A DNA stretch of 64,000 nucleotides from Calditrichia bacterium (GCA_965227145.1 OZ245730.1:2916646-2980645); one strand, 5' to 3'; positions 1-29,713 are shown, counted from the first letter of the stretch. Notes: a model not told the origin generated them from the letters alone. Program-made: numbers and translations.

Positions 1-188
1 ACGCACGTTTTGTCTGCGGTGGTTGTTAGTGTGCAAATCGTTTTGTGCTGTTCTAACTGGCGGTTGTACCGGACGAAACCGCAGGGCTGGCAGTTTCTTT
101 CTAAAAAATATTCTGTGCAAATAAGTTTAATAAAATCAGCCGGTTGTGTGCAAGTGTTTCGCCGGTAAACCTTTTTGTTAGAAAAAAT

Positions 189-479
189 ATGAAGTTAAAA
201 GATCAATTATTGTTTCACCTTAAAAATCATATGCACAAACTAATTGATGATAACGATTTTGGTTTATTAGAGGATACAGCAAATTTATCGAACGCTTTGC
301 AAACTGGTAAATTGGAACAATTGCCATACGATGAACAAATATTTTGGCTTAATAAAGTTGATGGAATATATCGCTATTTTATTAGGGATGGAAATCCAAA
401 TTACTGTAACAACTCCGATATAAAAAAAATATTAGAAATTATTGGTTCAGAATTAAAATCTTTAAAAAAGAAGTTATAA
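189..479 (+). CDS. Cassette-borne hypothetical protein (96 aa)
   Basis: ATG 5 nt after R' of the first attC. The listed ORF extension back to 144 lies inside the attC. A near-identical truncated copy is at 29714. Confidence 0.75.
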   Translation: MKLKDQLLFHLKNHMHKLIDDNDFGLLEDTANLSNALQTGKLEQLPYDEQIFWLNKVDGIYRYFIRDGNPNYCNNSDIKKILEIIGSELKSLKKKL

Positions 480-778
480 CTAAACTTCAAGCCAAATAGA
501 AAGCCAATTTGAGGGATAAATATTTAAGAGTCGGTTTTCGTAAGTGAAAGGTTTTCAGTAGTTTATATTTTTGGTTGTTTGCAAGTTTGTAAGTTTTGTG
601 TGTTTTTTCTCTGTATTTTTTTCGTGGTAAAATTCAGTTTTTGCGGTTCTAACTTTCGGTTGTACCGGACGCAACCGCAGGGCTGTGCTTTCGTTCTAAA
701 TTTTAGTTTGTGCAAATGGGTTGTAAAACATCAGCAAATTCGGTGCAAGTGTTGCGCCGGTAAACCGTGTTGTTAGAT

Positions 779-1017
779 TCGGTTTTGTGTTTTCAGAAAA
801 GAAAAACTCCAAAAAATGGAGCAATTGCCAACGCCAAAATAATATTTAAAAAGATGTCCGTAAACGAAAGTGAAAGCTGATTTGACGAATAATATTTAAG
901 AGTCGGCTTTTCGTAAGTGAAAGGTTTTCAGTAGTTTATATTTTTGGTTGTTTGTAATTCAGTAAGTTTTGTGTGTTTTAGCGGCGTATTTTTTCGTGGT
1001 AAATTTAAGTGTTGCGG
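779..1017 (+). repeat. ORF-less cassette family A (11 copies, ~240 bp body)
   Basis: Bodies at 779-1017, 1851-2089, 3364-3603, 3736-3975, 4108-4348, 6582-6820, 9732-9971, 11817-12057, 12565-12806, 13932-14173, 14306-14545. Shared 5' half up to TATTTAAGAGTC, then the tail TTTTCGTAAGTGAAAGGTTTTCAG...TTCGTGGTAAA...TTGCGG. No conserved ORF. Confidence 0.88.
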
Positions 1018-1150
1018 TTCTAACTTTCGGTTGTACCGGACGCAACCGCAGGGCTGTGCTTTTGTTCTAAATTTTAGTTTGTGCAAAATGGGTTGTAAAA
1101 TATTAGCAAATTCGGTGCATGTGTTGCGCCGGTAAACCGTGTTGTTAGAT

Positions 1151-1394
1151 TCAGTTTTGTATTTTTCAAAAAAGAAAAGACTCCAGAAAACGGAGCAATT
1201 GCAAACGCAGAAATAATTTTTAAAGGACGTCCGCAAACCAAAGAGTAAGCCAATTTGCGGGATAAATATTTAAGAGTCCGCGCTTCAAAGAGTGTGGTTT
1301 TGGCAGGTTTTATTTTTACTTTTTTGATTTCTGTCAGTGTTTTGATCAGTCAAAATTTTTTTATTTTTCAGTGCAATGCAATTTAGTGTTGTGG
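1151..1394 (+). repeat. ORF-less cassette family B (2 copies)
   Basis: Bodies at 1151-1394 and 19632-19877. Same 5' half as A, different tail (GTGTGGTTTTGGCAGG...CTGTCAGTGTTTTG). Confidence 0.85.
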
Positions 1395-1526
1395 TTCTAA
1401 CTGTCGGTTGTACCGGACGCAACCGCAGGGCTGTGCTATCTTTCTAAATTTTAGTTTGTGCAAAATGGTTGTAAAATATTAGCAAATTCGGTGCAAGTGT
1501 TGCGCCGGTAAACCGTGTTGTTAGAT

Positions 1527-1718
1527 GGCAAAACGAAAAAGACGAAGAACATTTTGGGCTGTTGAGAAAACATAAACTCTTATCTGTTTTGGTTTACCAT
1601 TTAGTGGTGAACGTTCGTTTTTTGGTGCCAGTTTCTACATGTCGTTTGTTTGCGTCGTTGGTTGCCAACGCATATTTTTTCTGCGGTGGTTGTTTGTGCG
1701 CAAGTACGTTTTGTGCTG
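1527..1718 (+). repeat. ORF-less cassette family D (8 complete copies + 1 partial, ~190-203 bp body)
   Basis: Bodies at 1-50 (partial), 1527-1718, 7552-7742, 12939-13132, 13264-13466, 13599-13798, 14678-14870, 17230-17429, 20009-20209. Conserved hairpins GTTTACCA-N5-TGGTRAA and CGTTGG-NTG-CCAACG. Not alignable by eye to the A/B/C 5' half. Confidence 0.88.
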
Positions 1719-2220
1719 CTCTAACTGGCGGTTGTACCGGACGAAACCGCAGGGCTTGCGGTTTCTTTCTAAAAAATATTTGTGCAAATAAGTTGTATAA
1801 AATCAGCTAATTATGTGCCGGTGTTTCGCCGGTAAACCTTTTTGTTAGATTCAGTTTTGTATTTTCAGAAAAGAAAAACTCCAAAAAATGGAGCAATTGC
1901 CAACGCAAAAATAATATTTTAAAGATGTCCGCAAACCAAAGCGAAAGCTAATTTGATGAATAATATTTAAGAGTCGATTTTTCGTAAGTGAAAGGTTTTC
2001 AGTAGTTTATATTTTTGGTTGTTTGTAAATCTGTAAGTTTTGTGTGTTTTTCGCGGTGTATTTTTTCGTGGTAAAATTTAGTGTTGCGGTTCTAACTTTC
2101 GGTTGTACCGGACGCAACCGCAGGGCTGTGCTTTTGTTCTAAATTTAAGTTTGTGCAAACAGTTGTAAAATATCAGCAAATTCGGTGCATGTGTTGCGCC
2201 GGTAAACCGTGTTGTTAGAT

Positions 2221-2465
2221 TCAGTTTTGTATTTTTACAAAAAAGAAAAGACTCCGAAAAATGGAGCAAAAGCCAACGCAAAGTAAATATTTTAAAGACG
2301 TCCTCTTTTCGTAAGTGAAAGCCAGTTTGCGGGATAAATATTTAAGAGTCGGTTTAATTTAGTGCTGGGTTTTTGCAAGTTTATATTTTGGTTTTGTGGT
2401 CAACTGCGGGCTTCTGTAAAAATGTAAGTCAGTTGGCGGAGCTTTGTAAAAACAAAGTGTTGCGT
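2221..2465 (+). repeat. ORF-less cassette family C (4 copies)
   Basis: Bodies at 2221-2465, 6205-6449, 12189-12433, 19254-19499. Same 5' half as A, tail with CAACTGCGGGCTTCTGTAAAAATGTAAGTCAGTTGGCGGAGC. Confidence 0.87.
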
Positions 2466-2609
2466 TTCTAACTTTCGGTTGTACCGGACGCAACCGCAGG
2501 GCTGTGCTTTTGTTCTAAAAAATATTTGTGCAAATGGGTTGTAAAAATTCAGCAAATTGTGGCGTAGTGTTGCGCCGGTAAACCTTTTTGTTAGCCTAAA
2601 GGAGAATCG

Positions 2610-3218
2610 ATGCCAAGGTTTTCAATCTTCAGTGATGAAAAAAGACTTGAACAATCGATAAAAGATGTTCATTCAAAACTCAAAGATGGTTGTGACACTA
2701 AAGCGATACCAGAATCATTGGCAGATATTTACCAGGAAAAAGAGATTGAAAAATTGTTGCAAATAATAAAAAGCATAAATAATGAAAATCCAAATTCCTT
2801 AAAAAAAGCTATCTTTAAATCTGCTGCTTTTACCGCATTGCTGATAAATTTCTTAACTGTATATTTACTTTTTTATGATGGAATAAATCAAGATTGGAAT
2901 CAATCAATTCGGTTATTTTTATTGTTGTCAAGTAACATTATTGTAATAATTGGCATACTAAATAGATATACTTTTTTATATATTTTTGCAATCGCTTGTG
3001 GCATTTTAATGTTGTATCCTGAGGCTCAATTCAGACTTCTAACAAAATATTTATCAACAACATTGTCTATTTATATTATCGCGGTAACTGTTGTAATAGC
3101 ACTTGTGTTAATATTTTTTAGCTGGATTTTAAAACGTTCTAGCTCAATAGAATTGTATTCGGTAAGTAAAATTCTAAAACAAAATAGTTTAGACTTTGAA
3201 GAATTTTTAACAAAGTAA
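2610..3218 (+). CDS. Cassette-borne membrane protein (~4 TM helices)
   Basis: AAGGAG RBS before the ATG; four hydrophobic segments; fills the cassette between attC sites. Confidence 0.8.
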   Translation: MPRFSIFSDEKRLEQSIKDVHSKLKDGCDTKAIPESLADIYQEKEIEKLLQIIKSINNENPNSLKKAIFKSAAFTALLINFLTVYLLFYDGINQDWNQSIRLFLLLSSNIIVIIGILNRYTFLYIFAIACGILMLYPEAQFRLLTKYLSTTLSIYIIAVTVVIALVLIFFSWILKRSSSIELYSVSKILKQNSLDFEEFLTK

Positions 3219-4499
3219 GGTTAATATTTTTGGCTAACTGTCGGTTGTACCGGACGCAACAGCAGGGCTGTGCTTTTGTTCTAAATTTTAAGTTGTGCAA
3301 ATGGGTTGTAAAACATCTGCAAATTTGGTGCAAGTATTGCGCCGGTAAACCGTGTTGTTAGATTTAGTTTTGTGTTTTCAGAAAAGAAAAAACTCCAAAA
3401 AATGGAGCAATTGCCAACGCTGAAATAATATTTTAAAAGATGTCCGCAAACGAAAGTGAAAGCTGATTTGACGAATAATATTTAAGAGTCGGTTTTTCGT
3501 AAGTGAGAGGTTTTCAGTAGTTTATATTTTTGGTTGTTTGCAGTTTCGTAAGTTTTGTGTGTTTTTCGCTGTATTTTTTTCGTGGTAAATTTTAGTGTTG
3601 CGGTTCTAACTTTCGGTTGTACCGGACGCAACCGCAGGGCTGTGCTTTCGTTCTAAATTTTAGTTTGTGCAAATAAGTTTAATAAAATCAGCAAATTGTG
3701 GCGTAGTGTTGCGCCGGTAAACCGTGTTGTTAGATTCAGTTTTGTGAGTTTTTAAAAGAAAAGGCTCCAAAAAATGGAGCAATTGCCAACACAAAAATAA
3801 TATTTTAAAGATGTCCGCAAACCAAATCGAAAGCTAATTTGATGAATAATATTTAAGAGTCGGTTTTACGTAAGTGAAAGGTTTTCAGCAGTTTAATTTT
3901 TGATTGTTTGTAAATCTGTAAGTTTTGTGGGTTTTTCGCGGCGTATTTTTTCGTGGTAAAATTCAGTTTTTGCGGTTCTAACTTTCGGTTGTACCGGACG
4001 AAACCGCAGGGCTGGCAGTTTCTTTCTAAAAAATATCTGTGCAAATAAGTCAAATAAAATCAGCCGGTTGTGTGCAAGTGTTTCGCCGGTAAACCTTTTT
4101 GTTAGATTCAGTTTTGTATTTTCAGAAAAGAAAAACTCCAAAAAATGGAGCAATTGCCAACGCAGAAATAATATTTTAAAAGACGTCCGCTTTCCGTAAG
4201 TGAAAGCCAATTTGATGAATAATATTTAAGAGTCGGTTTTTCGTAAGTGAAAGGTTTTCAGTAGTTTATATTTTTGGTTGTTTGTAAAACCTTAAGTTTT
4301 GTGTGTTTTTCGCAGTTTATTTTTTCGTGGTAAAATTCAGTGTTGCGGTTCTAACTTTCGGTTGTACCGGACGCAACCGCAGGGCTGTGCTTTCGTTCTA
4401 ATAAATATTTTGTGCAAATAAGTAAAATAAAATCAACCGGTTGTGTGCAAGTGTTTCGCCGGTAAACCTTTTTGTTAGGACTAAAAAACTTGTAAAAAA

Positions 4500-4883
4500 A
4501 TGACAGAAATTATCTCAGAGTTAGAAAAAGAATATTACAAATACGGTAAAATCATAGAAGCTCCGAAAAAATTTTTACAATTTCATACGATACCGCAACA
4601 TGATGGAAGAGCACATATAGAATATGAAGGCAGCGACTTAATTTATGTGATTACTGAAAGAGGAATTAGATTTAATGAAAAAAGGACTACAAACCCGGAT
4701 GAATTATTATTCTGGTTAATAAGTGATCTAACATTTGAGATAGCAAACGAACTCAGTATAAATGAATGTAAAACAAATGAAGAATATAGAAAAAAACTAT
4801 TTTTAAGGCAGGAAGCACTAATAGGTCGCATAAACCAAGAATGGGAAAAACAATTAAAAAAATATCATGATAAACTATTGTAA
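4500..4883 (+). CDS. Imm63-family immunity protein (cassette-borne)
   Basis: Motifs DGRAHIE, YVITERG, DELLFWL, F.RQE.L...I...W resemble polymorphic-toxin immunity family Imm63. Confidence 0.7.
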   Translation: MTEIISELEKEYYKYGKIIEAPKKFLQFHTIPQHDGRAHIEYEGSDLIYVITERGIRFNEKRTTNPDELLFWLISDLTFEIANELSINECKTNEEYRKKLFLRQEALIGRINQEWEKQLKKYHDKLL

Positions 4884-5061
4884 ATCTTTGTATTACCTGC
4901 AACTGTCGTCCTAACTTCCGGTTGTACCGGACGCAACCGCAGGGCTGTGTTTTTGTTCTAAATTTTAGTTTGTGCAAAAGGGTTGTAAAATATCAGCAAA
5001 TTCGGTGCAAGTGTTGCGCCGGTAAACCGTGTTGTTAGACTTTATTAATAAATATTTTAAA

Positions 5062-5817
5062 ATGACAGATGCTCAGATAAAATATGGTACATGGAACATC
5101 AAGAAAGGATTTGTCCCTCCAAAGGACTCCGTGACCTTGTTTGACGAATACAGACCTTCTGACAAGCTCAGCTTGGTCGTCACACAAACGAATTTAACCT
5201 CATATCAACAACAAAAAAATATAGATGAGTGGTGTGACAAACTACCTGCATTGAGTGAAGTAAAGTTCCTTTGGATGCCTTCTAAAGTGAATCAGAAAAT
5301 TTTTGACGCAGTTTGTAAAATGTCAAACATTGAAGGTTTGTGGATAAAATGGAGTGGAATCAAAAAATTAGATCAATTAGCCCAACTTAAAAATCTAAAG
5401 TATTTTAAGCTTGGAAGTTCGTCACAAGTTGAAAGCATAGAAGCCCTTGAAAGCTTGACAAATCTTGAAACTTTGGAATTAGAGCAATTAAATAAAATAA
5501 CAAACTTCAATGTAATCGGGAGCTTAACTCAATTGCAAGGGCTAGGTCTTGATGGTAGTTTGTGGACAGCTCAAAAAATTGATTCTTTGGAACCAGTCAG
5601 CTATTTAGAGAAATTGAAATATTTAACTACAACCAATTCTCAAATCAAAGACAAATCATTTGACCCATTATTAGGATTGACTGAATTAGTGCGGTTTAAT
5701 TGTTCATGGAACTATCCTGAGTCAGAATTTGAAAAATTGAATTCATTGCCTAATCTAAAGTACGGGAATATTGAGACTTCCTGGAAAGAATTGAAAGCCA
5801 AAATGAGAATAGAATAA
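5062..5817 (+). CDS. Leucine-rich repeat protein (cassette-borne)
   Basis: Repeated LxxLxxLxxLxL units (LAQLKNLKYFKL, LESLTNLETLEL, IGSLTQLQGLGL). Start taken at the first ATG after the attC. Confidence 0.85.
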   Translation: MTDAQIKYGTWNIKKGFVPPKDSVTLFDEYRPSDKLSLVVTQTNLTSYQQQKNIDEWCDKLPALSEVKFLWMPSKVNQKIFDAVCKMSNIEGLWIKWSGIKKLDQLAQLKNLKYFKLGSSSQVESIEALESLTNLETLELEQLNKITNFNVIGSLTQLQGLGLDGSLWTAQKIDSLEPVSYLEKLKYLTTTNSQIKDKSFDPLLGLTELVRFNCSWNYPESEFEKLNSLPNLKYGNIETSWKELKAKMRIE

Positions 5818-6971
5818 AAAGTGTACCAAAAGAACAATAAGCAATAGCTTCCTTCGGGATGCTAATGCTCTCAGCCAAAAGAATTTTAACAAAACCAATA
5901 TTAAAAAAATTCCTTTTTTTAAATTGGTGATAAAGCAGATTTTGACAGTGATTCTTATCCGTAATTGTGGTTTATAACCACTGTAGTAAAATCGGGTCTT
6001 CTGTTATCTGTCAGTGTTTTTTGGTCATTCAACGTGTTGTAAATTGGTCTTGTGCAAACCGTAGCTCTGCTCGTCTAACTATCGGTTGTACCGGACGCAA
6101 CCGCAGGGCTGTGCTTTTGTTCTAAGTTTTAGTTTGTGCAAATGGGTTGTAAAATATCAGCAAATTGTGGCGTAGTATTGCGCCGGTAAACCGTGTTGTT
6201 AGATTTCGATTTTGTATTTTTTCAAAAAAGAAAGACTCCAAAAAATGGAGCAAAAGCCAACGCAAAGTAAATATTTTAAAGACGCCCTCTTTTCGTAAGT
6301 GAAAGCCAGTTTGCGGGATAAATATTTAAGAGTCGGTTTAATTTAGTGCTGGGTTTTTGCAAGTTTATATTTTGGTTTTGTGGTCAACTGCGGGCTTCTG
6401 TAAAAATGTAAGTCAGTTGGCGGAGCTTTGAAAAAACAACGTGTTGCGGTTCTAACTTTCGGTTGTACCGGACGCAACCGCAGGGCTGTGCTTTTGTTCT
6501 AAATTTTAGTTTGTGCAAATGGGTTGTAAAATATCAGCAAATTCGGTGCAAGTGTTGCGCCGGTAAACCTTTTTGTTAGATTCAGTTTTGTATTTTCAGA
6601 AAAGAAAAACTCCAAAAAATGGAGCAATTACCAACGCAAAGTAAATATTTTAAAGACGTCCGCTTTTCGTAAGTGAAAGCCAGTTTGCGGGATAAATATT
6701 TAAGAGTCGGTTTTCGTAAGTGAAAGGTTTTCAGTAGTTTATATTTTTGAGTGTTTGTAAATCTGTAAGTTTTGTGTGTTTTTCGCAGTTTGTGTTTCGT
6801 GGTAAAATTCAGTGTTGCGGTTCTAACTTTCGGTTGTACCGGACGCAACCGCAGGGCTGTGCTTTTGTTCTAAATTTTAGTTTGTGCAAATGGGTTGTAA
6901 AATATCAGCAAATTTCGGCGTAGTGTTGCGCCGGTAAACCGTGTTGTTAGAGCATCAGGGATAATAGAAGA

Positions 6972-7412
6972 ATGAATAAATGCTTGTATATGATGTTGAA
7001 GTTGATTCTGCTTATTCTATTTTTAATTCTTCCAACCAATATTTTTTCAAATAACGAAAAAAGTGAAAATTTTGATTATTTCATTATTGATTTTTTTGCA
7101 AATCAAGAATTCCAAAAAAGTAGAACGCTTTTTCCATTGGAGTATACTTATTATGATCCTGGGCTTGAAGTAGATAACGATATAATTACAGTATATTTAT
7201 CCGAGTCTGATTGGAAACCGATGACGGATACAAGCTATATTCAAAGTGAGTATTTCCATAGGATATATGACAATTTCGATGCAAAACTACGCGATACCGG
7301 AAAACGTGTATTTGCATACGAAGGGAGTGAGACTTGTCTCAAAATTTATCTATATTTTGAGCTTAGGGAAGAAAAGTGGTTCTTAATAAAAAAAGAGGAT
7401 TTCAGTTCGTAA
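6972..7412 (+). CDS. Secreted protein, DUF4348-like (cassette-borne)
   Basis: Signal peptide; ENFDYFI..F...EFQKSR..FPL motif and C-terminal YFE....KWFL. Confidence 0.6.
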   Translation: MNKCLYMMLKLILLILFLILPTNIFSNNEKSENFDYFIIDFFANQEFQKSRTLFPLEYTYYDPGLEVDNDIITVYLSESDWKPMTDTSYIQSEYFHRIYDNFDAKLRDTGKRVFAYEGSETCLKIYLYFELREEKWFLIKKEDFSS

Positions 7413-8287
7413 TCGGTTCCTCTAACTTTCGGTTGTACCGGACGCAACCGCAGGGCTGTGCTTTCGTTCTAAATTTTAGGTTGTGCAAATGGGTTGTAAA
7501 ATATCAGCTAATTCGGTGCAAGTGTTGCGCCGGTAAACCGTGTTGTTAGAATGCAAATTAAAAAAGACGAAAAACATTTTGGGTTGTTGGAAAAACATAA
7601 ACTATTATTTGTTTTGGTTTACCAGTTTGTGGTAAACGTTCGTTTTTTGGTACCAGTTTCTACATGACGTGTTTTTGCGTCGTTGGTTGCCAACTCGCGT
7701 TTTGTCTGCGGTGGTTGTTTGTGTGCAATTTATTGTGTGCTTTTCTAACTGGCGGTTGTACCGGACGCAACCGCAGGGCTGGCAGTTTCTTTCTAAATTT
7801 TACTTTGTGCAAATAAGTTGTATAAAATCAGCTAATTATGTGCCGGTGTTTCGCCGGTAAACCTTTTTGTTAGATTTTTAAAATCAAAGTTTATGAAGAA
7901 TATTATAATCATTATTCTATTTCTTGTACAATCAACGATAGCTCAATCATCCAAAGTTGAATATTGGGAGCACTTTTCCGAAAATGATAAACTAGAAATT
8001 CTTAAAGATTCTAGAGTAACAGAGACAATGAAAGCAATTTATAATAGTGTATCACCTGAAGAAATTGATTTTGAAGGGATAGAAACATTATTAGATACGA
8101 TATGTATATTTAATAACAAATTACAACCACTCTATTTCTTTTTATTTAACAACCTAATAATAATCGCGGACGGGTATCTTGCAGAATCAATGGGATATTA
8201 TTCATATAAAATTATAAATCAGGATGCTATTTATGTATTGAAATATCTACAGGAAAAGCCGGAAATCAGGGCTAAATACATAAGTTA

Positions 8288-9393
8288 TACTCACACTAAA
8301 TTGGTTTGGGAAAATCCCATCAATTGAATATCTTTATCCATGCTAGAATTAGATGACAACACCCGGCGCGAATTAAAGCTTTTGCAGAAGCGTCCGTCCA
8401 ACAAACGCATTTATATCAAAGTCACTGTATTGTTGATGCTGGACAAAGGTCTTTCTGTCCAGGTGATTGCCGATTTTTTAGGCATTGATGACAACACCGT
8501 CTACCGCTATCGTGACAGCTATCTCACCAACGGACTGAAAGATTATCTGGCATCCAATTATTTTCGATACAATGGCAAACTCACTGATGAAGAAAAAGCC
8601 CGGCTCGTTGCAGAACTGACTGAATACCTGTATCCAAGCAGCGCTGCTGTTGGTGAATTTATCGCGGCGACCTTCAACAAGCACTATTGTGAAAGTGCTG
8701 TTTCCACACTGCTGAACCGTTTGGGCTTTGTTTACAAAAAGACCAAATCCGTTCCTTCAAAAGCGGATTCGGCTGCCCAAAGACGGTTTGTTAAAAAGCT
8801 ACACAGATTGTTGAAAAAACAGGATGTTAATGCTATTTTCTATTTCAACGACGCAGCGCATCCCCAACACAATACCCGTCCGGCATATGGCTGGATACCA
8901 AAGGGTGAGGATGTTGGTATTCCCTCAAATACCGGTCGTAAACGCCTGAATATTAATGCTGCCATCAACGCCGAAGATGTTGGCGACATTGTTTTTCGTG
9001 AAGATGAACAGATCAATTCCCAATCAACCATCGCCCTTTGGGAAGCCCAGCATGCGAAACATCCGGGTAAAAAGATCTATAACATCTGTGACAACGCCAG
9101 ATACTACAAAAGTCACCTCATTCAGGAATGGTTAAAGAAGAATAAATGGTGCAAAGTGATATATTTACCGGCATATTCGCCAAACCTGAACATTATCGAA
9201 CGATTATGGAAGTATTTACGAAAATCGGTCATCGATTATTTTTACTATGAAAAGTATAGTGATTTCAAGGTTGCAATATTGACATTTTTTGAAACGATTG
9301 AGCAGCATAGGCAACCCTTAACTTCTTTGCTTACGCTTAATTTTCACATCCCATAAAAATGGTTATTTGTCCCTAACCAATTTCTTTTGGGTA
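8288..9393 (+). mobile_element. IS630-family insertion sequence
   Basis: Imperfect terminal inverted repeats TACTCACACTAAATTGGTTTGGGA / revcomp TACCCAAAAGAAATTGGTTAGGGA; TA target duplication at 8286-8287 and 9394-9395. Confidence 0.93.
8340..9356 (+). CDS. IS630-family transposase
   Basis: N-terminal HTH; DDE motifs FNDAAHP, ICDNARYY, LPAYSPNLNIIERLW. Confidence 0.95.
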   Translation: MLELDDNTRRELKLLQKRPSNKRIYIKVTVLLMLDKGLSVQVIADFLGIDDNTVYRYRDSYLTNGLKDYLASNYFRYNGKLTDEEKARLVAELTEYLYPSSAAVGEFIAATFNKHYCESAVSTLLNRLGFVYKKTKSVPSKADSAAQRRFVKKLHRLLKKQDVNAIFYFNDAAHPQHNTRPAYGWIPKGEDVGIPSNTGRKRLNINAAINAEDVGDIVFREDEQINSQSTIALWEAQHAKHPGKKIYNICDNARYYKSHLIQEWLKKNKWCKVIYLPAYSPNLNIIERLWKYLRKSVIDYFYYEKYSDFKVAILTFFETIEQHRQPLTSLLTLNFHIP

Positions 9394-10194
9394 TATTTAG
9401 GTTTTGAGTTTTATCATGCAGAAGATTCAAAATTTGAATTGGAGAAGTGGCAGTCAGAAATTATTAATAAGAACACTAAACATCTGGGGCAAGCTGATAT
9501 AAAAAGGATTGGGCAGTTTATAACTGCCTGTATTGCTGAAGCTGAACAAATAAAGATGGATGCTGACAAAAAAGATTGATGACAATAAAGAGAAAGCACA
9601 TCTAACTTTCGGTTGTACCGGACGCAACCGCAGGGCTGGCAGTTTCTTTCTAAAAAATATTTGTGCAAATAAGTAAAATAAAATCAGCCGGTTGTGTGCA
9701 AGTGTTTCGCCGGTAAACCTTTTTGTTAGAATGAAATTCCGGAAAAGTTGAAAAGAAAAAACACCAAAAAATGGAGTAATTGCCAACGCAAAGTTAATAT
9801 TTGAAAGACGTCCGCAAACGAAAGTGAAAGCTAATTTGACGAATAATATTTAAGAGTCGGTTTTACGTAAGTGAAAGGTTTTCAGTAGTTTATATTTTTG
9901 GTTGTTTGCAATTTTGTAAGTTGTTTGTGTTTTTCGCAGTTTGTGTTTCGTGGTAAAATTTAGTGTTGCGGTTCTAACTTTCGGTTGTACCGGACGCAAC
10001 CGCAGGGCTGTGCTTTTGTTCTAAATTTTAGGATGTGCAAATGAGTTGTAAAATATCAGCAAATTCGGTGCAAGTGTTGCGCCGGTAAACCGTGTTGTTA
10101 GGATGCCAAAATGTGACAATTTATGATTTTTTTTCGAATAATATAATTCTATCGGAATTCATTCAAACTCACTAATTCTTTTAAGGGGCAAATC

Positions 10195-10827
10195 ATGAAC
10201 TTATTGAAGCTCTGTTTTGTATTTTTCATCGGATTAACGGTTGTTATTAATGCTCAAAGCCATCCTGAAGATCTTACCACGACAAATAGTCTAAACCAGC
10301 CCATCACATTGATTGAAACCCAAACACAAAATATGACAACAAGCACCAGCACGCTAAGTTATGCTTTTAAGATCGGTGATGAAAAAAAAATAAGAAACGC
10401 AGGTTATTTCGGAAACGGGATTCGTCCCTTTGTTGAATCAAATCCCGAAGCTTTGGCAGAATGGAGTAAATTTAAGAAAAAGAGGGTTGTTAGTGTTATT
10501 GGCTATACAGGAACATTTGCATTTATGGGATTAGGTTTAGCGATCGGTTTAAATAAAGATACTGGCGAACAAGTATATGATCCCCGCGAAGGGAAAACAA
10601 TTAACAAAAAATCTCCAAAACCTTTGGGATTAACAATGATAGGGTTGTCAGTGGTTAGCTTAATTGTAGGCGGGTACAATTATTTTTCAGCCGGTAATCA
10701 TATGATTGAATCAGTACAAATTTATAATTCTAACTTAACGAGTGATAATTCATCAAAAATAGAATACAAACTACTACCCGAAATTAGGTCTGATAAAGCA
10801 CTAATAAGTCTCCATATTTCGTGGTAA
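10195..10827 (+). CDS. Cassette-borne exported/membrane protein
   Basis: Signal peptide plus two hydrophobic helices; AAGGGG RBS. Confidence 0.75.
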   Translation: MNLLKLCFVFFIGLTVVINAQSHPEDLTTTNSLNQPITLIETQTQNMTTSTSTLSYAFKIGDEKKIRNAGYFGNGIRPFVESNPEALAEWSKFKKKRVVSVIGYTGTFAFMGLGLAIGLNKDTGEQVYDPREGKTINKKSPKPLGLTMIGLSVVSLIVGGYNYFSAGNHMIESVQIYNSNLTSDNSSKIEYKLLPEIRSDKALISLHISW

Positions 10828-11104
10828 AGTGAAAATGAACCAATTTAAAGCAGAGCTATTTGTTTAGCTTTTGTAACTAATGTGTTAATTTCTGTATGGT
10901 CTGCAAACTTAAATTTGTTCTAATAATTTGATCTAAATTTAATGTTGCAATCCTAACTTTCGGTTGTACCGGACGCAACCGCAGGGCTGTGCTTTTGTTC
11001 TAAATTTTATTTTGTGCAAATGGGTTGTAAAACATCAGCAAATTTGGTGCAAGTGTTTCGCCGGTAAACCGTGTTGTTAGATTCAGTTAAGGAGAAAAAT
11101 TCAA

Positions 11105-11539
11105 ATGAGTAAGAATGTTAAAACAATTGTTTTTACGGTAATCGGACTTTTAATCGGTTATGTGGGATCGCAATTTCTTATTGATACAATTTTCAAGAAA
11201 CCTAATATTGAGGAAATTCTTGTGCAAGCAGCGCAAGAGATGAATAAATCTTGCCCAATAATTTTAGACCAAGATACAAGACTCGATACTACATTGGGTG
11301 GACCTGGGAAAAACTTTTCATATTTTTATACATTAGTAAACTATTCAAAAGAAGAAATTAATCAGGATACATTGATATCCTATTTAAAACCAAACATTAT
11401 TAATAATGTAAAAACCCATCCTCAAATGGCAATATTTAGAGAGAATGATATTACAATGAATTATAATTATAAAGACAAAGATGGAGTTTTTTTATTTATT
11501 ATTTCAGTCACACCGGAGGAATATAAAAATCAATTGTGA
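11105..11539 (+). CDS. Cassette-borne membrane-anchored hypothetical protein
   Basis: AAGGAG RBS; N-terminal TM helix; NKSCP...DQDTRLD motif. Confidence 0.75.
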   Translation: MSKNVKTIVFTVIGLLIGYVGSQFLIDTIFKKPNIEEILVQAAQEMNKSCPIILDQDTRLDTTLGGPGKNFSYFYTLVNYSKEEINQDTLISYLKPNIINNVKTHPQMAIFRENDITMNYNYKDKDGVFLFIISVTPEEYKNQL

Positions 11540-14500
11540 TGCAATCCTTCAAGATATAATCTAAAGAGTCCGTTTTTCGTAAGTAAAAGGTTTTCAGTAG
11601 TTTATATTTTGGTTGTTTGCAAATCCGTAAGTTTCGTGTGTTTTTTTGCAACGTATTTTTTCGTGGTAAAAGTCGGTTTGTGCGGTTCTAACTGTCGGTT
11701 GTACCGGACGCAACCGCAGGGCTGTGCTTCTGTTCTAAAAAATATCTGTGCAAATCAGTTTAATAAAATCAGCAAATTATGGCGTAGTGTTGCGCCGGTA
11801 AACCGTTTTGTTAGATTAAAATTCCGTTAATTTCAAAAAGAAAAACTCCAAAAAATGGAGTAATTGCCAACGCAGAAATAATATTTTAAAAGACATCCGC
11901 GAACGAAAGTGAAAGCCAATTTGATGAATAATATTTAAGAGTCGGTTTTACGTAAGTGAAAGGTTTTCAGTAGTTTATATTTTTGGTTGTTTGTAAAACC
12001 TTAAGTTTTGTGTGTTTTTCGCAGTTTATTTTTTCGTGGTAAAATTCAGTGTTGCGGTTCTAACTTTCGGTTGTACCGGACGCAACCGCAGGGCTGTGCT
12101 TTCGTTCTAAAAAATAATTGTGCAAATAAGTTTAATAAAATTAGCAAATTCGGTGCAAGTGTTGCGCCGGTAAACCGTGTTGTTAGATTCAGTTTTGTAT
12201 TTTTACAAAAAAGAAAAGACTCCGAAAAATGGAGCAAAAGCCAACGCAAAGTAAATATTTTAAAAACGTCCTCTTTTCGTAAGTGAAAGCCAGTTTGCGG
12301 GATAAATATTTAAGAGTCGGTTTAATTTAGTGCTGGGTTTTTGCAAGTTTATATTTTGGTTTTGTGGTCAACTGCGGGCTTCTGTAAAAATGTAAGTCAG
12401 TTGGCGGAGCTTTGTAAAAACAAAGTGTTGCGTTTCTAACTTTCGGTTGTACCGGACGCAACCGCAGGGCTGTGCTTTTGTTCTAAAAAATATTTGTGCA
12501 AATGGGTTGTAAAAATTCAGCAAATTGTGGCGTAGTGTTGCGCCGGTAAACCTTTTTGTTAGATTGAAAATTCCGTTAATTTCGAAAAGAAAAACTCCCA
12601 AAAATGGAGTGATTGCCAACGCAAAGTTAATATTTTAAAGACGTCCGCTTTTCGTAAGTGAAAGCCTATTTGCGGGATAAATATTTAAGAGTCCGTTTTT
12701 CGTAAGTGAAAGGTTTTCAGTCGTTTATATTTTGTTTGTTTGCATTTTCGTAGGTTTTGTGTGTTTTTCGCGGCGTATTTTTTCGTGGTAATTTTTAGTG
12801 TTGCGGTTCTAACTTTCGGTTGTACCGGACGCAACCGCAGGGCTGTGCTTTCGTTCTAAATTTTAGTTTGTGCAAATGGGTTGTAAAATATCAGCAAATT
12901 CGGTGCATGTGTTGCGCCGGTAAACCGTGTTGTTAGAAAGCAAAATGAAAAAAACAAAAACCGTTTCTGATTTTTGGGAAAACATAAGTTTGTATCTGTT
13001 TTGGTTTACCAGATTGTGGTGAAAGTTCGTTCTTTTTGGTGGCAACTTCTACATGTCGTGTGTTTGCGTCGCTGGTTGCCAACGCGCGTTTTGTCTGCGG
13101 TGGTTTTGTCTGTGCAAGTTCGTTTTGTGCATTTCTAACTTTCGGTTGTACCGGACGCAACCGCAGGGCTGTGCTTTCGTTCTAAAAATTATCTGAGCAA
13201 ATAAGCTTAATAAAATCAGCAAATTCGGTGCAAGTGTTGCGCCGGTAAACCGTGTTGTTAGAAGGCAAATTGAAAAAGGCTAAAAAGTCAAAAACCGATT
13301 TTGGCTGTTGGGAAAACATAAGTTTATATCTGTTTTGGTTTACCAGATTTTGGTGAAAGTTCATTCTTTTTGGTGGTCTTTTCTACGGGTCGTGTGTTTG
13401 CATCGTTGGTTGCCAACGCGCGTTTTGTCTGCGGTGGTTGTTTGTGTGCAAGTTCGTTTTGTGCGGTTCTAACTTTCGGTTGTACCGGACGCAACCGCAG
13501 GGCTGTGCTTTTGTTCTAAATTTTAGTTTGTGCAAAATGGTTGTAAAATATCAGCAAATTGTGGCGTAGTGTTGCGCCGGTAAACCGTGTTGTTAGAAGG
13601 CAAATCGAAAAAGGCTAAAAAGACAAAAACCGATTTTGGTTGTTGGAAAAACATAAACTCTTATTTGTTTTGGTTTACCAGTTTGTGGTGAACGTTCGTT
13701 TTTTGGTGCCAGTTTCTACATGTCGTGTGTTTGCGTCGTTGGGTGCCAACGCACGTTTTGTCTGTGGTGGTTGTTTGTGTGCAAATTGGTTTGTGCTGTT
13801 CTAACTGGCGGTTGTACCGGACGAAACCGCAGGGCTGGCAGTTTCTTTCTAAATTTTAAATTGTGCAAATAAGTTTAATAAAATCAGCCGGTTGTGTGCA
13901 AGTGTTTCGCCGGTAAACCTTTTTGTTAGATTCGGTTTTGTATTTTTTCAAAAAAGAAAGACTCCAAAAAATGGAGCAAAAGCCAACGCAAAGTAAATAT
14001 TTTAAAGACGTCCGCTTTTCGTAAGTGAAAGCCAGTTTGCGGGATAAATATTTAAGAGTCCGTTTTTCGTAAGTGAAAGGTTTTCAACAGTTTAAATTTT
14101 TGGTTGTTTGTAAATCTGTAAGTTTTGTGTGTTTTTCGCTGTATTTTTTTCGTGGTAAAATTTAGTGTTGCGGTTCTAACTTTCGGTTGTACCGGACGCA
14201 ACCGCAGGGCTGTGCTTTTGTTCTAAGTTTTAGTTTGTGCAAATGAGTTGTAAAATATCAGCAAATTGTGGCGTAGTGTTGCGCCGGTAAACCGTGTTGT
14301 TAGATTCAGTTTTGTATTTTCAGAAAAGAAAAACTCCAAAAAATGGAGCAATTGCCAACGCAGAAATATTATTTTAAAGACGTCCGCTTTTCGAAAGTGA
14401 AAGCCAGTTTGCGGGATAAATATTTAAGAGTCGGTTTTCGTAAGTGAAAGGTTTTCAGTAGTTTATATTTTTGAGTGTTTGTAAATCTGTAAGTTTTGTG

Positions 14501-15035
14501 TGTTTTTCGCGGTGTATTTTTTCGTGGTAAAATTTAGTGTTGCGGTTCTAACTTTCGGTTGTACCGGACGCAACCGCAGGACTGTGCTTTTGTTCTAAAT
14601 TTTAATTTGTGCAAATTGGTTGTAAATCATCTGCAAATAGTGGCGTAGTGTTGCGCCGGTAAACCGTGTTGTTAGAATGCAAATTAAAAAAGACGAAAAA
14701 CAATTTTGGGCTGTTGGGAAAACATAAATTTGTATCTGTTTTGGTTTACCATTTTGTGGTGAACGTTCGTTTTTTGGTGCCAGTTTCTACATGTCGTGTT
14801 TTTGCGTCGTTGGTTGCCAACGCGTGTTTTGTCTGCGGTGGTTGTTTGTGTGCAAGTTCGCTTTGTGCTGTTCTAACTGGCGGTTGTACCGGACGAAACC
14901 GCAGGGCTGGCAGTTTCTTTCTAAGTTATAGTTTGTGCAAATAAGTTTAATAAAATCAGCCGGTTGTGTGCAAGTGTTTCGCCGGTAAACCTTTTTGTTA
15001 GCCGTTACTATTATCTTTAAATAATTTCTTATGAA

Positions 15036-15707
15036 ATGAAAACTTTACTTCTTATTTACATTTTAACGTTTACCTGTTATCCGCAAATATCAACTTCTGA
15101 AATTGTTGGTATTTATAGCCAAAATAGCGGATTTACTCAACAGATTCTTGAATTAAATTCAGATAATACTTTCCAATATAGATATTTTTTTGATGTGGGT
15201 GGATGGAGGTTACCTATTCACGGTAACTGGAAAATAAAGAGTGATACAATATTTTTATTTTCTTCACCATTACCTGAGATACAAGAGGTTAAAGAATCAG
15301 AAAGCAGCGACAGTGTAATAACAATAACTGTCTATAACAGAGAAAGAGAAGAGGCTTTTTTATATCCTCAAATAAAACTAAATGGTTGGCATCCAGATTA
15401 TGACCCATCAATTCATGTTATCTCAACGGATTCTGTAAAATTTGGGCCATTTCTTGTTAGTAAAAATGAGTATAATTCGCCTATAAATAACATCAAACTA
15501 TATATTGGTAATTTTGTATTGTCATATATACCAAGCGATAAAAATTCAGACACTTTTGAATTAATTCTAAATTTAACCGAAGACGAAATTTTCAATGAAA
15601 TTTTTTTTGATAATGAGCCATATCTTTATCTAAATAACATGCTTTATCAACGGTTTAATGGAGAGTTTGTGACAGAATATCCATTAATAAAAGTCAAAAA
15701 ACAGTAG
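15036..15707 (+). CDS. Cassette-borne secreted hypothetical protein
   Basis: Signal peptide; beta-rich (LELNSDNTFQY, GNWKIKSDTIFL). Confidence 0.75.
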   Translation: MKTLLLIYILTFTCYPQISTSEIVGIYSQNSGFTQQILELNSDNTFQYRYFFDVGGWRLPIHGNWKIKSDTIFLFSSPLPEIQEVKESESSDSVITITVYNREREEAFLYPQIKLNGWHPDYDPSIHVISTDSVKFGPFLVSKNEYNSPINNIKLYIGNFVLSYIPSDKNSDTFELILNLTEDEIFNEIFFDNEPYLYLNNMLYQRFNGEFVTEYPLIKVKKQ

Positions 15708-15871
15708 TTGAAGTTTATTAAATATTATCAAAAACTCGGCTAACTTTCGGTTGTACCGGACGAAACCGCAGGGCTGGCAGTTTCTTTCTAAAAAATATTT
15801 GTGCAAATAAGTTTAATAAAATCAGCCGGTTGTGTGCATGTGTTTCGCCGGTAAACCTTTTTGTTAGAAAT

Positions 15872-16252
15872 ATGATTGTTGAATACAAAAACGGCCTAAA
15901 ATTTGAATTGTTTGACGATTTTGCAATAATTTATTTCCCAGAAGAATACTGGGTTGGTAGTTGGGGTTCAATGCTGGATTTGGTTAGACATAAGATAATA
16001 AGCCATGTTAAATATATTTTAATTGATTATTCAAATGTAAAGTTTATTGGTGATGGTAGCTTTGAGTCTGCAATTCTGAGAGAAGAATTCCAACAATTAG
16101 GCGGATCAGATGTTATTCATATATCCGTTCCTGAATGTATTAAAAATCTTTGGAAATTGGCAGATCCTAAAAATGAAGTAAAACCTTTTCCCGAATTTAT
16201 GAGTAAAGAAAACGCACTAAAATACATAACACTTAACCACAGAAAAAATTGA
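15872..16252 (+). CDS. Cassette-borne hypothetical protein, weakly STAS-like
   Basis: ATG 2 nt after the R' heptamer; ILIDYSNVKFI..S and a terminal 'ENAL' resemble anti-sigma-factor antagonist (STAS) domains. Confidence 0.6.
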   Translation: MIVEYKNGLKFELFDDFAIIYFPEEYWVGSWGSMLDLVRHKIISHVKYILIDYSNVKFIGDGSFESAILREEFQQLGGSDVIHISVPECIKNLWKLADPKNEVKPFPEFMSKENALKYITLNHRKN

Positions 16253-16476
16253 GATTACCTGAATAAAGTTAATTGATGCTTTTTAATGGTATAGTTTTTC
16301 CCAAAAAGCAAAATATTATTAAACTATTTCTAACTTTCGGTTGTACCGGACGAAACCGCAGGGCTGTGCTTTCGTTCTAAAAAATATTTGTGCAAATAAG
16401 TTTAATAAAATCAGCAGATTATGGCGTAGTGTTTCGCCGGTAAACCTTGTTGTTAGATTCGGGCAAAATTAAACAT

Positions 16477-16980
16477 ATGGAAATAAAGGTCAAAAAACCG
16501 ATAATGTTTTTATCAATATTCGTCATTGTCGTAGCTGTTGATGCAGCTTTTAGTGGAATAACTTTGGGTAGAGATTTGATACTCAGTTGGATAATAATCC
16601 TAGGAATTCCTCTTGAATTGGTTGCTATTCTGTTTCTTATGCCAACGCTTCGCTTGTATTTCTCTGAAAAAGGCTTAAGGAGATATTGGAAAATTGGGAT
16701 AGGTAAGTATATTCTTTGGGAGGATAACCGGTTCTCACTTCAATGGAACAATGTATCAAAAGTGTTTTCAGCTTTTCCACTTTGGGTCCCTTTAAGAATG
16801 ATCGGAATTGGAGGACGAACAAATCGTCGTTATTTAGTATTTTATGTTGGCTTTGTTACAACCCAAACAAAGGAATCGATATTGTACATAGCAACTCACG
16901 TGAAAAAAGAAGTGATAAGCAACGACGTTAAGAAACTAGTCAAAAAGTATAACCAAAAAAGAGACACTCTCAAAATGTAA
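16477..16980 (+). CDS. Cassette-borne membrane protein
   Basis: Two N-terminal TM segments; first ATG after the attC. Confidence 0.7.
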   Translation: MEIKVKKPIMFLSIFVIVVAVDAAFSGITLGRDLILSWIIILGIPLELVAILFLMPTLRLYFSEKGLRRYWKIGIGKYILWEDNRFSLQWNNVSKVFSAFPLWVPLRMIGIGGRTNRRYLVFYVGFVTTQTKESILYIATHVKKEVISNDVKKLVKKYNQKRDTLKM

Positions 16981-17586
16981 GTTTTGGCAAAGTTTATAAT
17001 TCGGTCTTTGTCAATTCTGCGCTGCGGGTTAAAAGTAAGTCAGGTGGCGGAGCTTTGTAAAAATTTAGTGTTGCGTTTCTAACTTCCGGTTGTACCGGAC
17101 GCAACCGCAGGGCTGTGCTTTCGTTCTAAATTTTATTTTGTGCAATTGGTTGTAAAATATCAGCAAATTCGGTGCATGTGTTGCGCCGGTCTCGAAGGGA
17201 TGCCTTCGGCATAAACCGTGTTGTTAGAAGGCAAATCGAAAAAGGCTAAAAAGACAAAAACCGTTTTGGGCTGTTGGAAAAACATAAACTCTTATCTGTT
17301 TTGGTTTACCATTTTGTGGTGAACATTCGTTTTTTGGTGCCAGTTTCTACATGTCGTGTTTTTGCGTCGTTGGTTGCCAACGCATATTTTTCTGCGGTAG
17401 TTGTTTCTGTGCAAATCGGTTTTGTGCAGTTCTAACTTTCGGTTGTACCGGACGCAACCACAGGGCTGTGCTTTTGTTCTAAAAAATAATTGTGCAAATA
17501 AGTTTAATAAAATCAGAAAATTGTGGCGTAGTGTTGCGCCGGTAAACCGTGTTGTTAGCGACAAGAAATGTGAAGTGGACTTTAAT

Positions 17587-18516
17587 ATGGGAATTCATAA
17601 CAATTGTATTTCAACTAAGAATTGTTTCAAGTATTGCAGGTTATTCAGTAAGCTTTTGTGTTGGTTCAGTTTTGGCATTTTTATATTAACAACTATGAAT
17701 AGTTACGCTCAAACGGACAATAATGGGAATCCAATATTTAATTCAATTTCGATAAATGAGCAACAATTTACCGAGTATAATCTAATATCAAACTATTACA
17801 CACTAATAAACAATATCGAGAATAAAAACTCGTCGGTTTATGTTTCAGATACACCAACGCTAAATGAAATTGAAACTTCAGCTATTAAACTTCCATCAGA
17901 TTTCTTTATTATTGCTAAGCTACAAAATGTATCTCACTTAATAATGTTGGTTAGTTCCCCTGAAAAGAAATTTCGAGTTATTAATATTGCAACAGAGAAT
18001 GAATTAGAGTTTGATTGTGATCTGAATGGTGATATCACAGAAAATCGGGCAAATGAAATAATCCAAGAAAAATTTGATCCAAAAGCAAAAATTGAAAGTG
18101 GAATTCTCCATTTTAATGGCAAAAAACTTAAGATTATACCCAATGAGTCAATTAACAATGCAGTTCTTTCATTGATTATGAAAGAAAAATTTTATGAATC
18201 ACAACCTTCTGAATTCAAAATTCCAACGAAAGACGAGCTAAAAGAAATTATTTTAAAAGAATCTACGGAAGGTGGTAAATTTGATTTTTTTTCTGAAATC
18301 AAAGAAAAAGAATATAACGGTGTTCAGATAAAACCCGGAGTATTTACAACATTAGAGTCGATAGCATTATACAAATGGGGACGTGCAAATTATGATTTAG
18401 GAATTAATACCATTGAAGACGCCTATGCTATATATGCTGAATTTCGAAATCGTGAGATTACAGATAAGGAAAAAGCTTATATCAAAAAAGGATTTGAAAA
18501 AGAATGGGAAAAATAA
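17587..18516 (+). CDS. Cassette-borne secreted hypothetical protein (start uncertain)
   Basis: Long ORF filling the cassette; hydrophobic stretch followed by SYA-QTD cleavage-like site. The listed extension to 17401 runs through an attC. Confidence 0.75.
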   Translation: MGIHNNCISTKNCFKYCRLFSKLLCWFSFGIFILTTMNSYAQTDNNGNPIFNSISINEQQFTEYNLISNYYTLINNIENKNSSVYVSDTPTLNEIETSAIKLPSDFFIIAKLQNVSHLIMLVSSPEKKFRVINIATENELEFDCDLNGDITENRANEIIQEKFDPKAKIESGILHFNGKKLKIIPNESINNAVLSLIMKEKFYESQPSEFKIPTKDELKEIILKESTEGGKFDFFSEIKEKEYNGVQIKPGVFTTLESIALYKWGRANYDLGINTIEDAYAIYAEFRNREITDKEKAYIKKGFEKEWEK

Positions 18517-18726
18517 ATTTTTCATGGTCGTTATATTCCTAACAATTTGCCTGATGGTCGCTAACTTCCGGTTGTACCGGACGCAACCGCAGGGCTGTGC
18601 TTTTGTTCTAAATTTTAGTTTGTGCAAATGGGTTGTAAAATATCAGCAAATTGTGGCGTAGTGTTGCGCCGGTAAACCGTGTTGTTAGATGGGTTCAATA
18701 TAAAACATTCAAAGTGAACACTAAAT

Positions 18727-19137
18727 ATGCTTTTATTTAAAATAATAATTTTAATATTAATATTATGTACATTCTTTTTTGGACAAGAAATTAATCAAAA
18801 CTTTCTAAATACAATTTGGATATGTGAAGTCACAAGCGAAGCCAATGATTCATTGTATCTCAATCTTGACTTGTCATTTATTAACTATAATTGTGAAATA
18901 GATGAGCACACCTATGGAACATTTAATATTTATAAAGACACTTTATATTTGTCTCAGGAATTTGGAGAGTTTGATTCTACATTTAAAGAAGGATCTATAC
19001 ATAGAAGAGGAAAAGCAATATATAAATATTTAATTTTAGACCAAGATAATATTAAACTAGTTTGTTACAAGGAAAATAATGCATTGCAAGGAATTTTAGA
19101 ATTTGATTGTGAAAATATTTTAAAAAAGGTAAAGTAA
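18727..19137 (+). CDS. Cassette-borne secreted hypothetical protein
   Basis: Signal peptide; beta-rich body. Confidence 0.7.
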   Translation: MLLFKIIILILILCTFFFGQEINQNFLNTIWICEVTSEANDSLYLNLDLSFINYNCEIDEHTYGTFNIYKDTLYLSQEFGEFDSTFKEGSIHRRGKAIYKYLILDQDNIKLVCYKENNALQGILEFDCENILKKVK

Positions 19138-19148
19138 ATAAATCACTT

Positions 19149-19253
19149 TTTTAACCCGTACTGTACGCGACACTTGCGTCGCGCGATGAATTTCGTGAAA
19201 GTCCTGGGCAACCGCCCTATTCCGGTGCGCATGTAAGTACTAAATCGTTAGAT
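19149..19253 (+). other. Foreign-type attC site
   Basis: TTTTAAC...GTACTGTACGCGACAC / GTGCGCATGTAAGTAC...GTTAGAT imperfect inverted repeat at the exact position an attC is expected, unrelated in sequence to the resident family. Confidence 0.7.
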
Positions 19254-27978: not shown

Positions 27979-28183
27979 AAATATCACAGATAATTATTCA
28001 ACCCTTTTTTTTGTTGCATTCGTAAGTCCTTCGGGTGCAAAAGCAGCAATTTCTGTTTTCCCCCTCTCCAGTCTTTTTAGAAATCCGTCGAGATATTTGT
28101 TGCCGATATTTTTTTTATGCACGATCCAAAATTTCAATTGAGAACGCAAATCTTCCTTTGTTGTTGCAAGTTGTTTTGTGCGA

Positions 28184-28337
28184 TCCTAACTTTCAGTTGT
28201 GCCGGACGCAACCGCAGGGCTGCTGTTTCTTTCTAAAAAATATATCTGTGCAAATTACTTTAATAAAATCAGCAAATTCGGTGCAAATGTTGCGCCGGTC
28301 CCAAAGGGATACTTTCGGTATAAACCGTTTTTTAGCG
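28184..28337 (+). repeat. Degenerate attC with 22-bp insertion and mutated R'
   Basis: TCCTAAC...GCCGGT[CCCAAAGGGATACTTTCGGTAT]AAACCGTTTTTTAGCG; the G of the GTT core is lost; preceded by a D-like tail. Confidence 0.82.
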
Positions 28338-28433
28338 CAGGCTCATTGCGGTTTAGGGGTAACCACCTGATAAATAACAAGCAGTTTATTACAAATTTCT
28401 ATACCCTTCATTAAAACGCAATGGCATTCTAAG

Positions 28434-29540: not shown

Positions 29541-29564
29541 TCAAACATCCGGACACGAAATTTG

Positions 29565-29708: not shown

Positions 29709-29713
29709 AAAAT

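Follow-up and report, generated by a model that had tools for sequence, protein, structure and literature searches.

Cassettes fused by loss of the attC recombination site between them are known in class 1 integrons, where they are excised as one unit (PMC4670013; here and below, papers given by PMC number are drawn on for parts of their text). In Vibrio, paralogous non-coding cassettes make up as much as 49% of an array, and one of the families numbers 45 copies (Boucher et al. 2006, PMC1382264), and de novo cassette formation is described as largely unknown (Loot et al. 2017, PMC5371416; PMC8352920). How the cassettes of a large chromosomal integron come to carry its host-specific attC is an open question, addressed here in a 64,000-nucleotide (nt) stretch of DNA from a Calditrichia bacterium (GCA_965227145.1 OZ245730.1:2916646-2980645; G000:C1:2916646-2980645 in our numbering), referred to as the window, in which positions are given unless another frame is named. 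Positions 1-20,345 of the window are the distal end of one large sedentary chromosomal integron, and several of its gene cassettes carry, between gene and attC, the 3' end of a gene-less ("blank") cassette. An earlier note on this DNA took such hybrids for snapshots of cassette genesis, in which a gene is captured by replacing the 5' half of a blank. The chimeras proved to be real, recurrent and built from blank material, while the proposed direction found no support; on balance it seems probable that the hybrids are secondary, existing cassettes fused or 3'-replaced with a swap of attC, rather than cassettes caught at their birth.

The whole array (G000:C1:2800360-2946210, about 146 kb) is a single cluster. 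The integrase gene intI is located upstream of it at 2798175-2799143 on the minus strand, divergent from the array, and its 322-amino-acid product scores 472 bits against a cut-off of 265 on TIGR02249 (integron integrase); relatives of IntI share at most 65% identity and are spread over many phyla. Genome-wide, 242 native-type attC cores (up to 2 mismatches) were found, co-oriented and all in one plus-strand cluster, and 38 exact copies of the 14-base core lie at 62..20221 of the window, all on the plus strand. The bottom strand of attC is predicted to fold into an imperfect hairpin with R' and R'' paired and with bulged bases (z = -3.9). The presence of an integrase and of co-oriented hairpin attCs showed that the array is a very large sedentary chromosomal integron. 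At least eight foreign-type attCs are present beside the native-type sites. The array was cut between the G and the TT of every R' box, which gave 237 cassettes, numbered c1-c237 across the whole array, and these were clustered by all-against-all blastn with single linkage at 80% mutual coverage. The part within the window is:

1-20345, plus strand: distal array end, with 38 native attCs, 36 parsed cassettes (c202-c237) and the start of the terminal blank

Gene-less cassettes account for 140 of the 237 (59%), and the remaining 97 fall into 66 clusters. The blanks form three families, of which the following members lie in the window:

fam0: 69 copies, body 244-312 nt, gene-less
fam2: 16 copies, body 249-252 nt, gene-less
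fam1: 55 copies, body 196-209 nt, gene-less
773-1144, plus strand: c203, an example of a fam0 blank, from cassette boundaries and clustering
starts at 1145, 1845, 2215, 3358, 3730, 4102, 6199, 6576, 9726, 11811, 12183, 12559, 13926, 14300, 19248 and 19626, plus strand: further blanks of fam0/2 type
1521-1844, plus strand: c205, an example of a fam1 blank, no conserved open reading frame (ORF)
starts at 7546, 12933, 13258, 13593, 14672 and 17224, plus strand: further fam1 blanks

Families fam0 and fam2 constitute one superfamily, built of a conserved 5' core of about 135 nt and, behind it, a tail that is more divergent and comes in three types; this tail is the least conserved part of the fam0/2 blanks. 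The fam1 blanks are unrelated to them, with broken frames and no conserved ORF. Of 41 genomes searched with blank plus attC as the query, two gave matches, this genome and that of one congener. The blanks are a lineage-restricted family of non-coding paralogous cassettes, with 85 fam0/2 and 55 fam1 copies and, for fam1, no conserved frame. A second attC of foreign type is hidden in eight long "cassettes" (c40, c64, c74, c78, c98, c115, c177 and c236), and five cases in the array (c40, c64, c78, c177 and c236) have the precursor-like order of gene, foreign attC and whole blank, represented in the window by:

18685-19247, plus strand: c236a, gene and foreign-type attC, adjoining a whole fam2 blank at 19248-19625

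The earlier note had placed blank tails in three cassettes of the window, and alignment bears this out, the tail lying in each between stop codon and attC. These three, with a fourth cassette that holds a decayed trace, are composed as follows:

178-772, plus strand: hybrid cassette c202, boundaries between the G and the TT of R'
189-479, plus strand: c202 gene, 96 amino acids, no Pfam family
499-646, plus strand: c202 tail, the 3' 155 nt of a fam0 blank with R'' (647-653) inside the match, 96.2% identical to blank c51
647-772, plus strand: c202 native attC, type Tt, predicted fold
11077-11810, plus strand: hybrid cassette c221, gene-tail junction bridged in 4 runs
11105-11539, plus strand: c221 gene, 144 amino acids, full length compared with homologues
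11563-11685, plus strand: c221 tail, fam0 main type, 129-131 nt, 88.5% identity; homology may begin about 10 nt earlier
11686-11810, plus strand: c221 native attC
16453-17223, plus strand: hybrid cassette c233, one of 6 copies, gene family in two subfamilies
16477-16980, plus strand: c233 gene, 167 amino acids, membrane protein predicted by eye, no Pfam family
16981-17076, plus strand: c233 tail, fam2 ("C") type, 103-105 nt, 79% identical to fam2 blanks
17077-17223, plus strand: c233 attC, with a hairpin insert of about 21 nt near its 3' end
5035-6198, plus strand: cassette c213, gene for a leucine-rich repeat (LRR) protein (to 5817), decayed trace of a tail at 5998-6027, R'' complementary to its own head

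The hybrids are not confined to these three. Tails of 56-155 nt with 76-96% identity to blanks occur in 9 gene families of the 51 with a testable 3' untranslated region (UTR), namely c21/69/108 with c147/182/233; c50/129/186; c76; c83; c99; c109; c115b; c202; and c221. A sensitive search was made of the same 51 families (3' UTR of 20 nt or longer), in which shuffled queries gave 1-6 matches, all near the limit of E = 0.05. It showed decayed short traces in two more families, c93/c213 (22 nt, 95%, E = 7e-5), which upholds the weak trace suspected before at about 5998-6027, and c25 (30 nt, E = 0.003); a trace proposed at about 10934-10950 has 19 of 23 matches and is right-anchored, yet gave no match in the sensitive search. 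Over all cases the retained tail measures 19-155 nt, and the tails of c202 and c50 reach into the last 35 nt or so of the conserved blank core. Each hybrid is bounded by normal R' crossover points and consists of two cassette-derived segments without a functional attC in between. Between different gene families, 3' sharing is limited to blank tails, insertion sequence (IS) copies and copies of one cassette disrupted by an IS. The c221 protein has its C terminus at the same point as homologues of 42-45% identity; in c99 the last codons and the stop lie in the tail, and the protein is at most a few residues short. Closer homologues exist too, one 82% identical to the c221 protein (P0003), one 87% to that of c233 (P0010) and one 79% to that of c99 (P0013). 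The possibility that the tails are decayed copies of attC was rejected, local alignment to attC giving p > 0.1 for all tail types on both strands.

The origin of the tails was traced with FastTree on the last 110 nt of the distinct fam0/2 blanks and the nine hybrid tails, under midpoint rooting (the alignment is short and support values were not used). In this tree, which the earlier note had proposed as a check, all nine tested hybrid tails nest in blank clades and represent at least three tail types. The c202 tail is sister to blank c51; c221 and c50 fall within the main type, whose base c99 joins; c83 and c115b lie within the c237 type; and c21/c147/c233 form one long branch inside fam2. 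The nesting identifies blanks as the donors, and the tail sequence is blank-derived. The two c233-gene subfamilies (68% amino-acid identity) share derived tail characters, those of c233 being found in the c21 subfamily as well; this suggests a single old event after which the tail diverged along with its gene.

The attCs of the hybrids are uniform in subtype. Subtype Tt is present in 9 of 9 hybrid families, 72 of 85 fam0/2 blanks, 15 of 55 fam1 blanks and 34 of 57 plain families; at the plain-family rate the chance of 9 out of 9 would be 0.6^9, about 0.01. This uniformity fits the suggestion that tail and attC arrived together. In the two multi-copy hybrid families, all nine copies have different neighbours on both sides, and from these array contexts the hybrids appear to move as single units. 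The draft genome of the congener has one blank, of the c237 type, at its array end, and past the array end a fossil (L181 reverse complement 5127-5260, G001:C18) composed of a gene, about 135 nt of blank tail and a truncated attC, so that tail-bearing gene cassettes exist in both species.

Whether the gene parts were cassettes before they gained their tails bears directly on the direction of the event. A fossil beyond the last intact attC of the window, and a putative remnant in c202 itself, are relevant:

29545-29941, plus strand: array-end fossil: decayed attC, then head GTTAGAAAAAATATG, then a c202-gene paralog that a chromosomal gene truncates
474-493, plus strand: putative left-hand remnant of a foreign attC in c202, TAAC-N5-TTCAAGCC, in the register of a c40a-type attC

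The paralog (29714-29941) is 88% identical to the c202 gene over 76 amino acids and has the same head GTTAGAAAAAATATG behind the decayed attC. Since the fossil is decayed and shares this head, while the c202 tail is still 96% identical to a living blank, the c202 gene was a cassette long before it received the tail, and it does not count as a gene that had never been in a cassette. In c76, CTAAC followed by AAGCCGACGGC stands right after the gene (shuffle p = 0.007). There are seven copies of AAGCCGACGGC in the genome, four of them in the array, and the three array copies other than that of c76 lie in c40a-type attCs; c76 probably holds a remnant of a foreign attC. The TAAC-N5-TTCAAGCC string of c202 overlaps the stop codon (shuffle p = 0.023) and is suggestive of such a remnant.

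Taken together, these data are best accommodated, in our judgement, if a gene cassette that already existed was stripped of its 3' end and attC, their place being taken by the 3' 19-155 nt of a fam0/2 blank with the native attC of that blank. The joining event would be an illegitimate recombination and could follow two routes. In the first, a deletion beginning shortly after the stop codon would take out the attC of the gene and end inside the adjoining blank; in the second, conversion or template switching would be anchored in the near-identical attC and spill into the non-homologous flank. Both routes would give the same product. Where the lost attC was of foreign type, the net result would be an attC swap, the gene then being carried by the recombination site native to the array. 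Being the least conserved part of the blanks, the tail is probably just a passenger. The two ends of the hybrids are unlike, no blank head being kept above noise and the right junctions being distributed over 19-155 nt. As a fallback, the earlier note had allowed that blanks overwrite the 3' ends of gene cassettes, and this fits better than its preferred direction, given the absence of head retention, the c202 fossil and the remnants in c76 and c202.

A number of observations weigh against this replacement. No pair of precursor and product was found for any one gene, and hybrid genes with their own attC, the unfused form, were found neither in the genome nor in the examined parts of the congener; the same gene in the order gene, attC, blank, which the earlier note had named as its refuting case, was looked for and not found, the only analogous unfused layouts in the array involving other genes. 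No attC remnant was seen at the joint in the other seven of the nine hybrid families, a native-attC remnant is retained at the joint in none of the hybrids, the best match to the remnant probe is c177 in another register, and the c202 string is short. In most families the distance between stop codon and left junction is 0-25 nt, a closer spacing than random ends in an attC of 90-130 nt would produce. No more than 155 of the roughly 250 blank bases are ever kept, the conserved 5' core being always lost (0.62^9, about 0.01). A fam1 tail is on no hybrid, though fam1 blanks follow 22 gene cassettes against 30 for fam0/2, and the chance that all donors are fam0/2 is (30/52)^9, about 0.007. The head of c221, finally, shares 13 nt with a blank head. 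These biases call for selection (for example against the core), a choice of donor by attC subtype, or a mechanism more specific than plain deletion.

The biases left unexplained by a plain replacement keep alive a more ambitious proposal, which we regard as tentative and a good deal less probable: that blanks act as attC donors, fusion of tail and attC putting foreign cassettes, and possibly genes without attC, onto the host site, with a dedicated mechanism behind both the restriction to one superfamily and the exclusion of the core. If blanks do have this role, they would offer a concrete route to the species-specific uniformity of attC in large chromosomal integrons and would accomplish one step of cassette genesis.

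It is rather unlikely that tail and attC together are a 3' module under selection, whether as extended recombination site, transcript end or promoter, blanks then being this module joined to a conserved non-coding core. Such a module would account for the finding that genes carry fam0/2 tails only, with none from fam1 or from other gene cassettes, for the link between tail type and attC subtype, and for the conservation of the c233-family tail through about 20% divergence; gene-less cassettes with promoter activity are, moreover, known in Vibrio (Blanco et al. 2024, PMC11014356). A selected module is difficult to reconcile with a tail that is the least conserved part of the blanks and with kept lengths of 19-155 nt that have no minimal piece in common. 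Rfam gave no match at E <= 1 in positions 1-20500 of the window, and the consensus fold of 17 blanks had no covariation support (covariation term -0.26).

More doubtful again is the genesis reading proper, in which blanks are the acceptors, an outside gene replaces the 5' part of a blank and the hybrids are new-born cassettes. It predicts the nesting of tails in blank clades, which is equally expected under fusion, and it agrees with junctions that hug the ORF as closely as in ordinary cassettes. Metagenomes commonly contain homologues of the c221 gene (128 relatives, of which 80 were kept), and an attC-like element lies downstream of them in just 2 of the 77 testable loci, by a heuristic that recovers 59 of 94 known cassettes (63% sensitivity) and is positive at 2 of 100 random sites; this rarity is likewise in keeping with genes from outside. 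Opposed to it are the history of c202 as a cassette before its gain of a tail and the foreign-attC remnants, probable in c76 and suggestive in c202.

The heads of the hybrids, which share 13 nt with a blank head in c221 and 10-12 nt in the c233 family, are what this reading mainly depends on, and the resemblance of chimera heads to blank heads reported in the earlier note dissolves into background both in prefix lengths and in 5' UTR matches. The longest exact prefix in common with any blank head is 5, 6, 7, 8, 8, 8, 10 and 13 nt in eight hybrid families and 5-13 nt in 44 plain families (one-sided Mann-Whitney p = 0.084). The plain gene cassette c162 (G000, 2897696-2898388) has its first 13 nt in common with fam1 blank heads, and short head sharing is therefore not limited to hybrids. 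With blastn-short, 3 of 30 testable 5' UTRs matched blanks, all in an A/T-rich stretch, and shuffles gave 1-4. In the c233 family, head positions 10-12 read ATA, AAG, AGG or GGG among otherwise near-identical copies, which makes the match of c233 to GTTAGATTCGG uninformative. No blank head beyond the R' box is kept 5' of the gene in the hybrids above the level of plain cassettes, nor is any longer stretch of one, while the right junctions span 130 nt. As a separate observation, c233 (16453-16475) differs from c147 and c182 at head positions 10-12 and 20 and in the tail, with the gene unchanged; on the evidence of this one family, change next to attCs may be faster than in the gene. A poorer match of R' and R'' in blanks and chimeras than in most gene cassettes, also remarked upon before, is roughly right by counts of complementary bases: only six end bases are complementary in 83 of 85 fam0/2 blanks, and the median is 7 in plain families (at least 7 in 32 of 44) and 6 in long-tail hybrids (Mann-Whitney p = 0.025).

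The reverse genealogy, with blanks descending from tail-bearing gene cassettes after loss of the gene, is improbable. Midpoint rooting leaves the direction unfixed for the fam2-type and c237-type tails, which gives it some room; against it, the c202 and c50 tails contain the last 35 nt or so of the blank core, the main tail type is common to six unrelated genes with different break points, and the hybrid tails are single twigs in large blank clades. A repeat-driven assembly artefact, conceivable in so highly repetitive an array, is hardly credible when hybrid families occur in 3-6 copies with identical junction and the c221 gene-tail junction (11077-11603/11610) is bridged by contigs from four public runs in four studies, three with 0-2 differences and one a relative with 33 differences over 515 nt (one run may be the genome's own source).

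Some further features of the array were recorded. In many attCs (for example at 700-727, 1071-1099, 1448-1475 and 3285-3312) the minus strand contains a motif resembling a sigma-70 promoter (TTTACA, 16-17 nt, TAAAAT), directed back into the cassette. In some attCs (those of c233 and c197 and the terminal and fossil ones; in the window at 17077-17223, 20199-20345, 28180-28335 and 29545-29702) a hairpin insert of about 21 nt separates CGCCGGT from AAACC, and the same variant is found in the solitary attC-like sites of the congener (G001 loci L179-L181). Decayed attCs and fossil cassettes occupy 28180-29941, past the last intact attC, the final one truncated and joined to a chromosomal gene. The fam0/2 core (for example 773-1024) holds a hairpin, CTCCA..TGGAG, that resembles an intrinsic terminator on the minus strand, with seven such sites flagged by a simple scan of 170-4500; fam1 blanks have a pair of terminator-like hairpins on the plus strand (such as 1592-1612 and 1656-1670) and an attC subtype that mostly differs from that of fam0/2. 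A DDE_3 transposase (IS630-like by Pfam; 8340-9356) is inserted in the cassette at 7870-9725, and four near-identical copies of the element are present in four array cassettes (c71, c97, c139 and c218). Pfam matches among the cassette genes include an Imm63 immunity protein, an LRR protein and DUF4348 (4500-4883, 5062-5817 and 6972-7412), whereas none of the hybrid genes of c202, c221 and c233 belongs to a family.

The array offers nine or more independent joints between a gene and a host-type attC with a traceable spacer, and two of them appear to show a replaced attC, which would make attC exchange observable. Caution is needed in that such hybrids should not be read as genesis, the evidence pointing to the reworking of existing cassettes. 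A literature search, with most subscription journals and supplements outside its scope, returned no description of hybrids between gene and gene-less cassettes.

Homology-facilitated illegitimate recombination, which is associated with natural transformation, has one end anchored in homology and the other joint in non-homologous DNA. By likeness to it, with an attC anchor of about 127 bp, the left junction would be expected in the short 3' UTR, and donors of the same subtype would be favoured. In common with models of de novo formation, the hybrids have a gene joined to a host-type attC with very little spacer. The model of Leon and Roy (2009) reportedly involves a group IIC-attC intron and reverse transcription; unlike in that model, there is here no intron or reverse transcriptase, and the gene parts look like pre-existing cassettes.

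The blanks resemble the non-coding cassettes of Vibrio (PMC1382264) in being gene-less, lineage-restricted, conserved and present in dozens of copies, and differ from them in host, in attC and in proportion, 140 of 237 (59%) being gene-less here; the portions of that paper considered mention no gene cassettes bearing pieces of non-coding ones. The promoter-bearing gene-less cassettes of Blanco et al. (2024, PMC11014356), whose main text has no mention of fusion, "chimer" or genesis, suggest a candidate function for the blanks and hence for the tails. The closest relatives of the hybrids are the fused cassettes of class 1 integrons (PMC4670013), with which they share two cassette-derived parts, no working attC between them, behaviour as one mobile unit and the possible persistence of a truncated attC. 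The differences are that the second partner is a non-coding cassette that has kept its 3' part only, that the product is one gene on a new attC and not a two-gene operon, and that a single array shows the joining at least nine times, with one and the same blank superfamily involved in every case.

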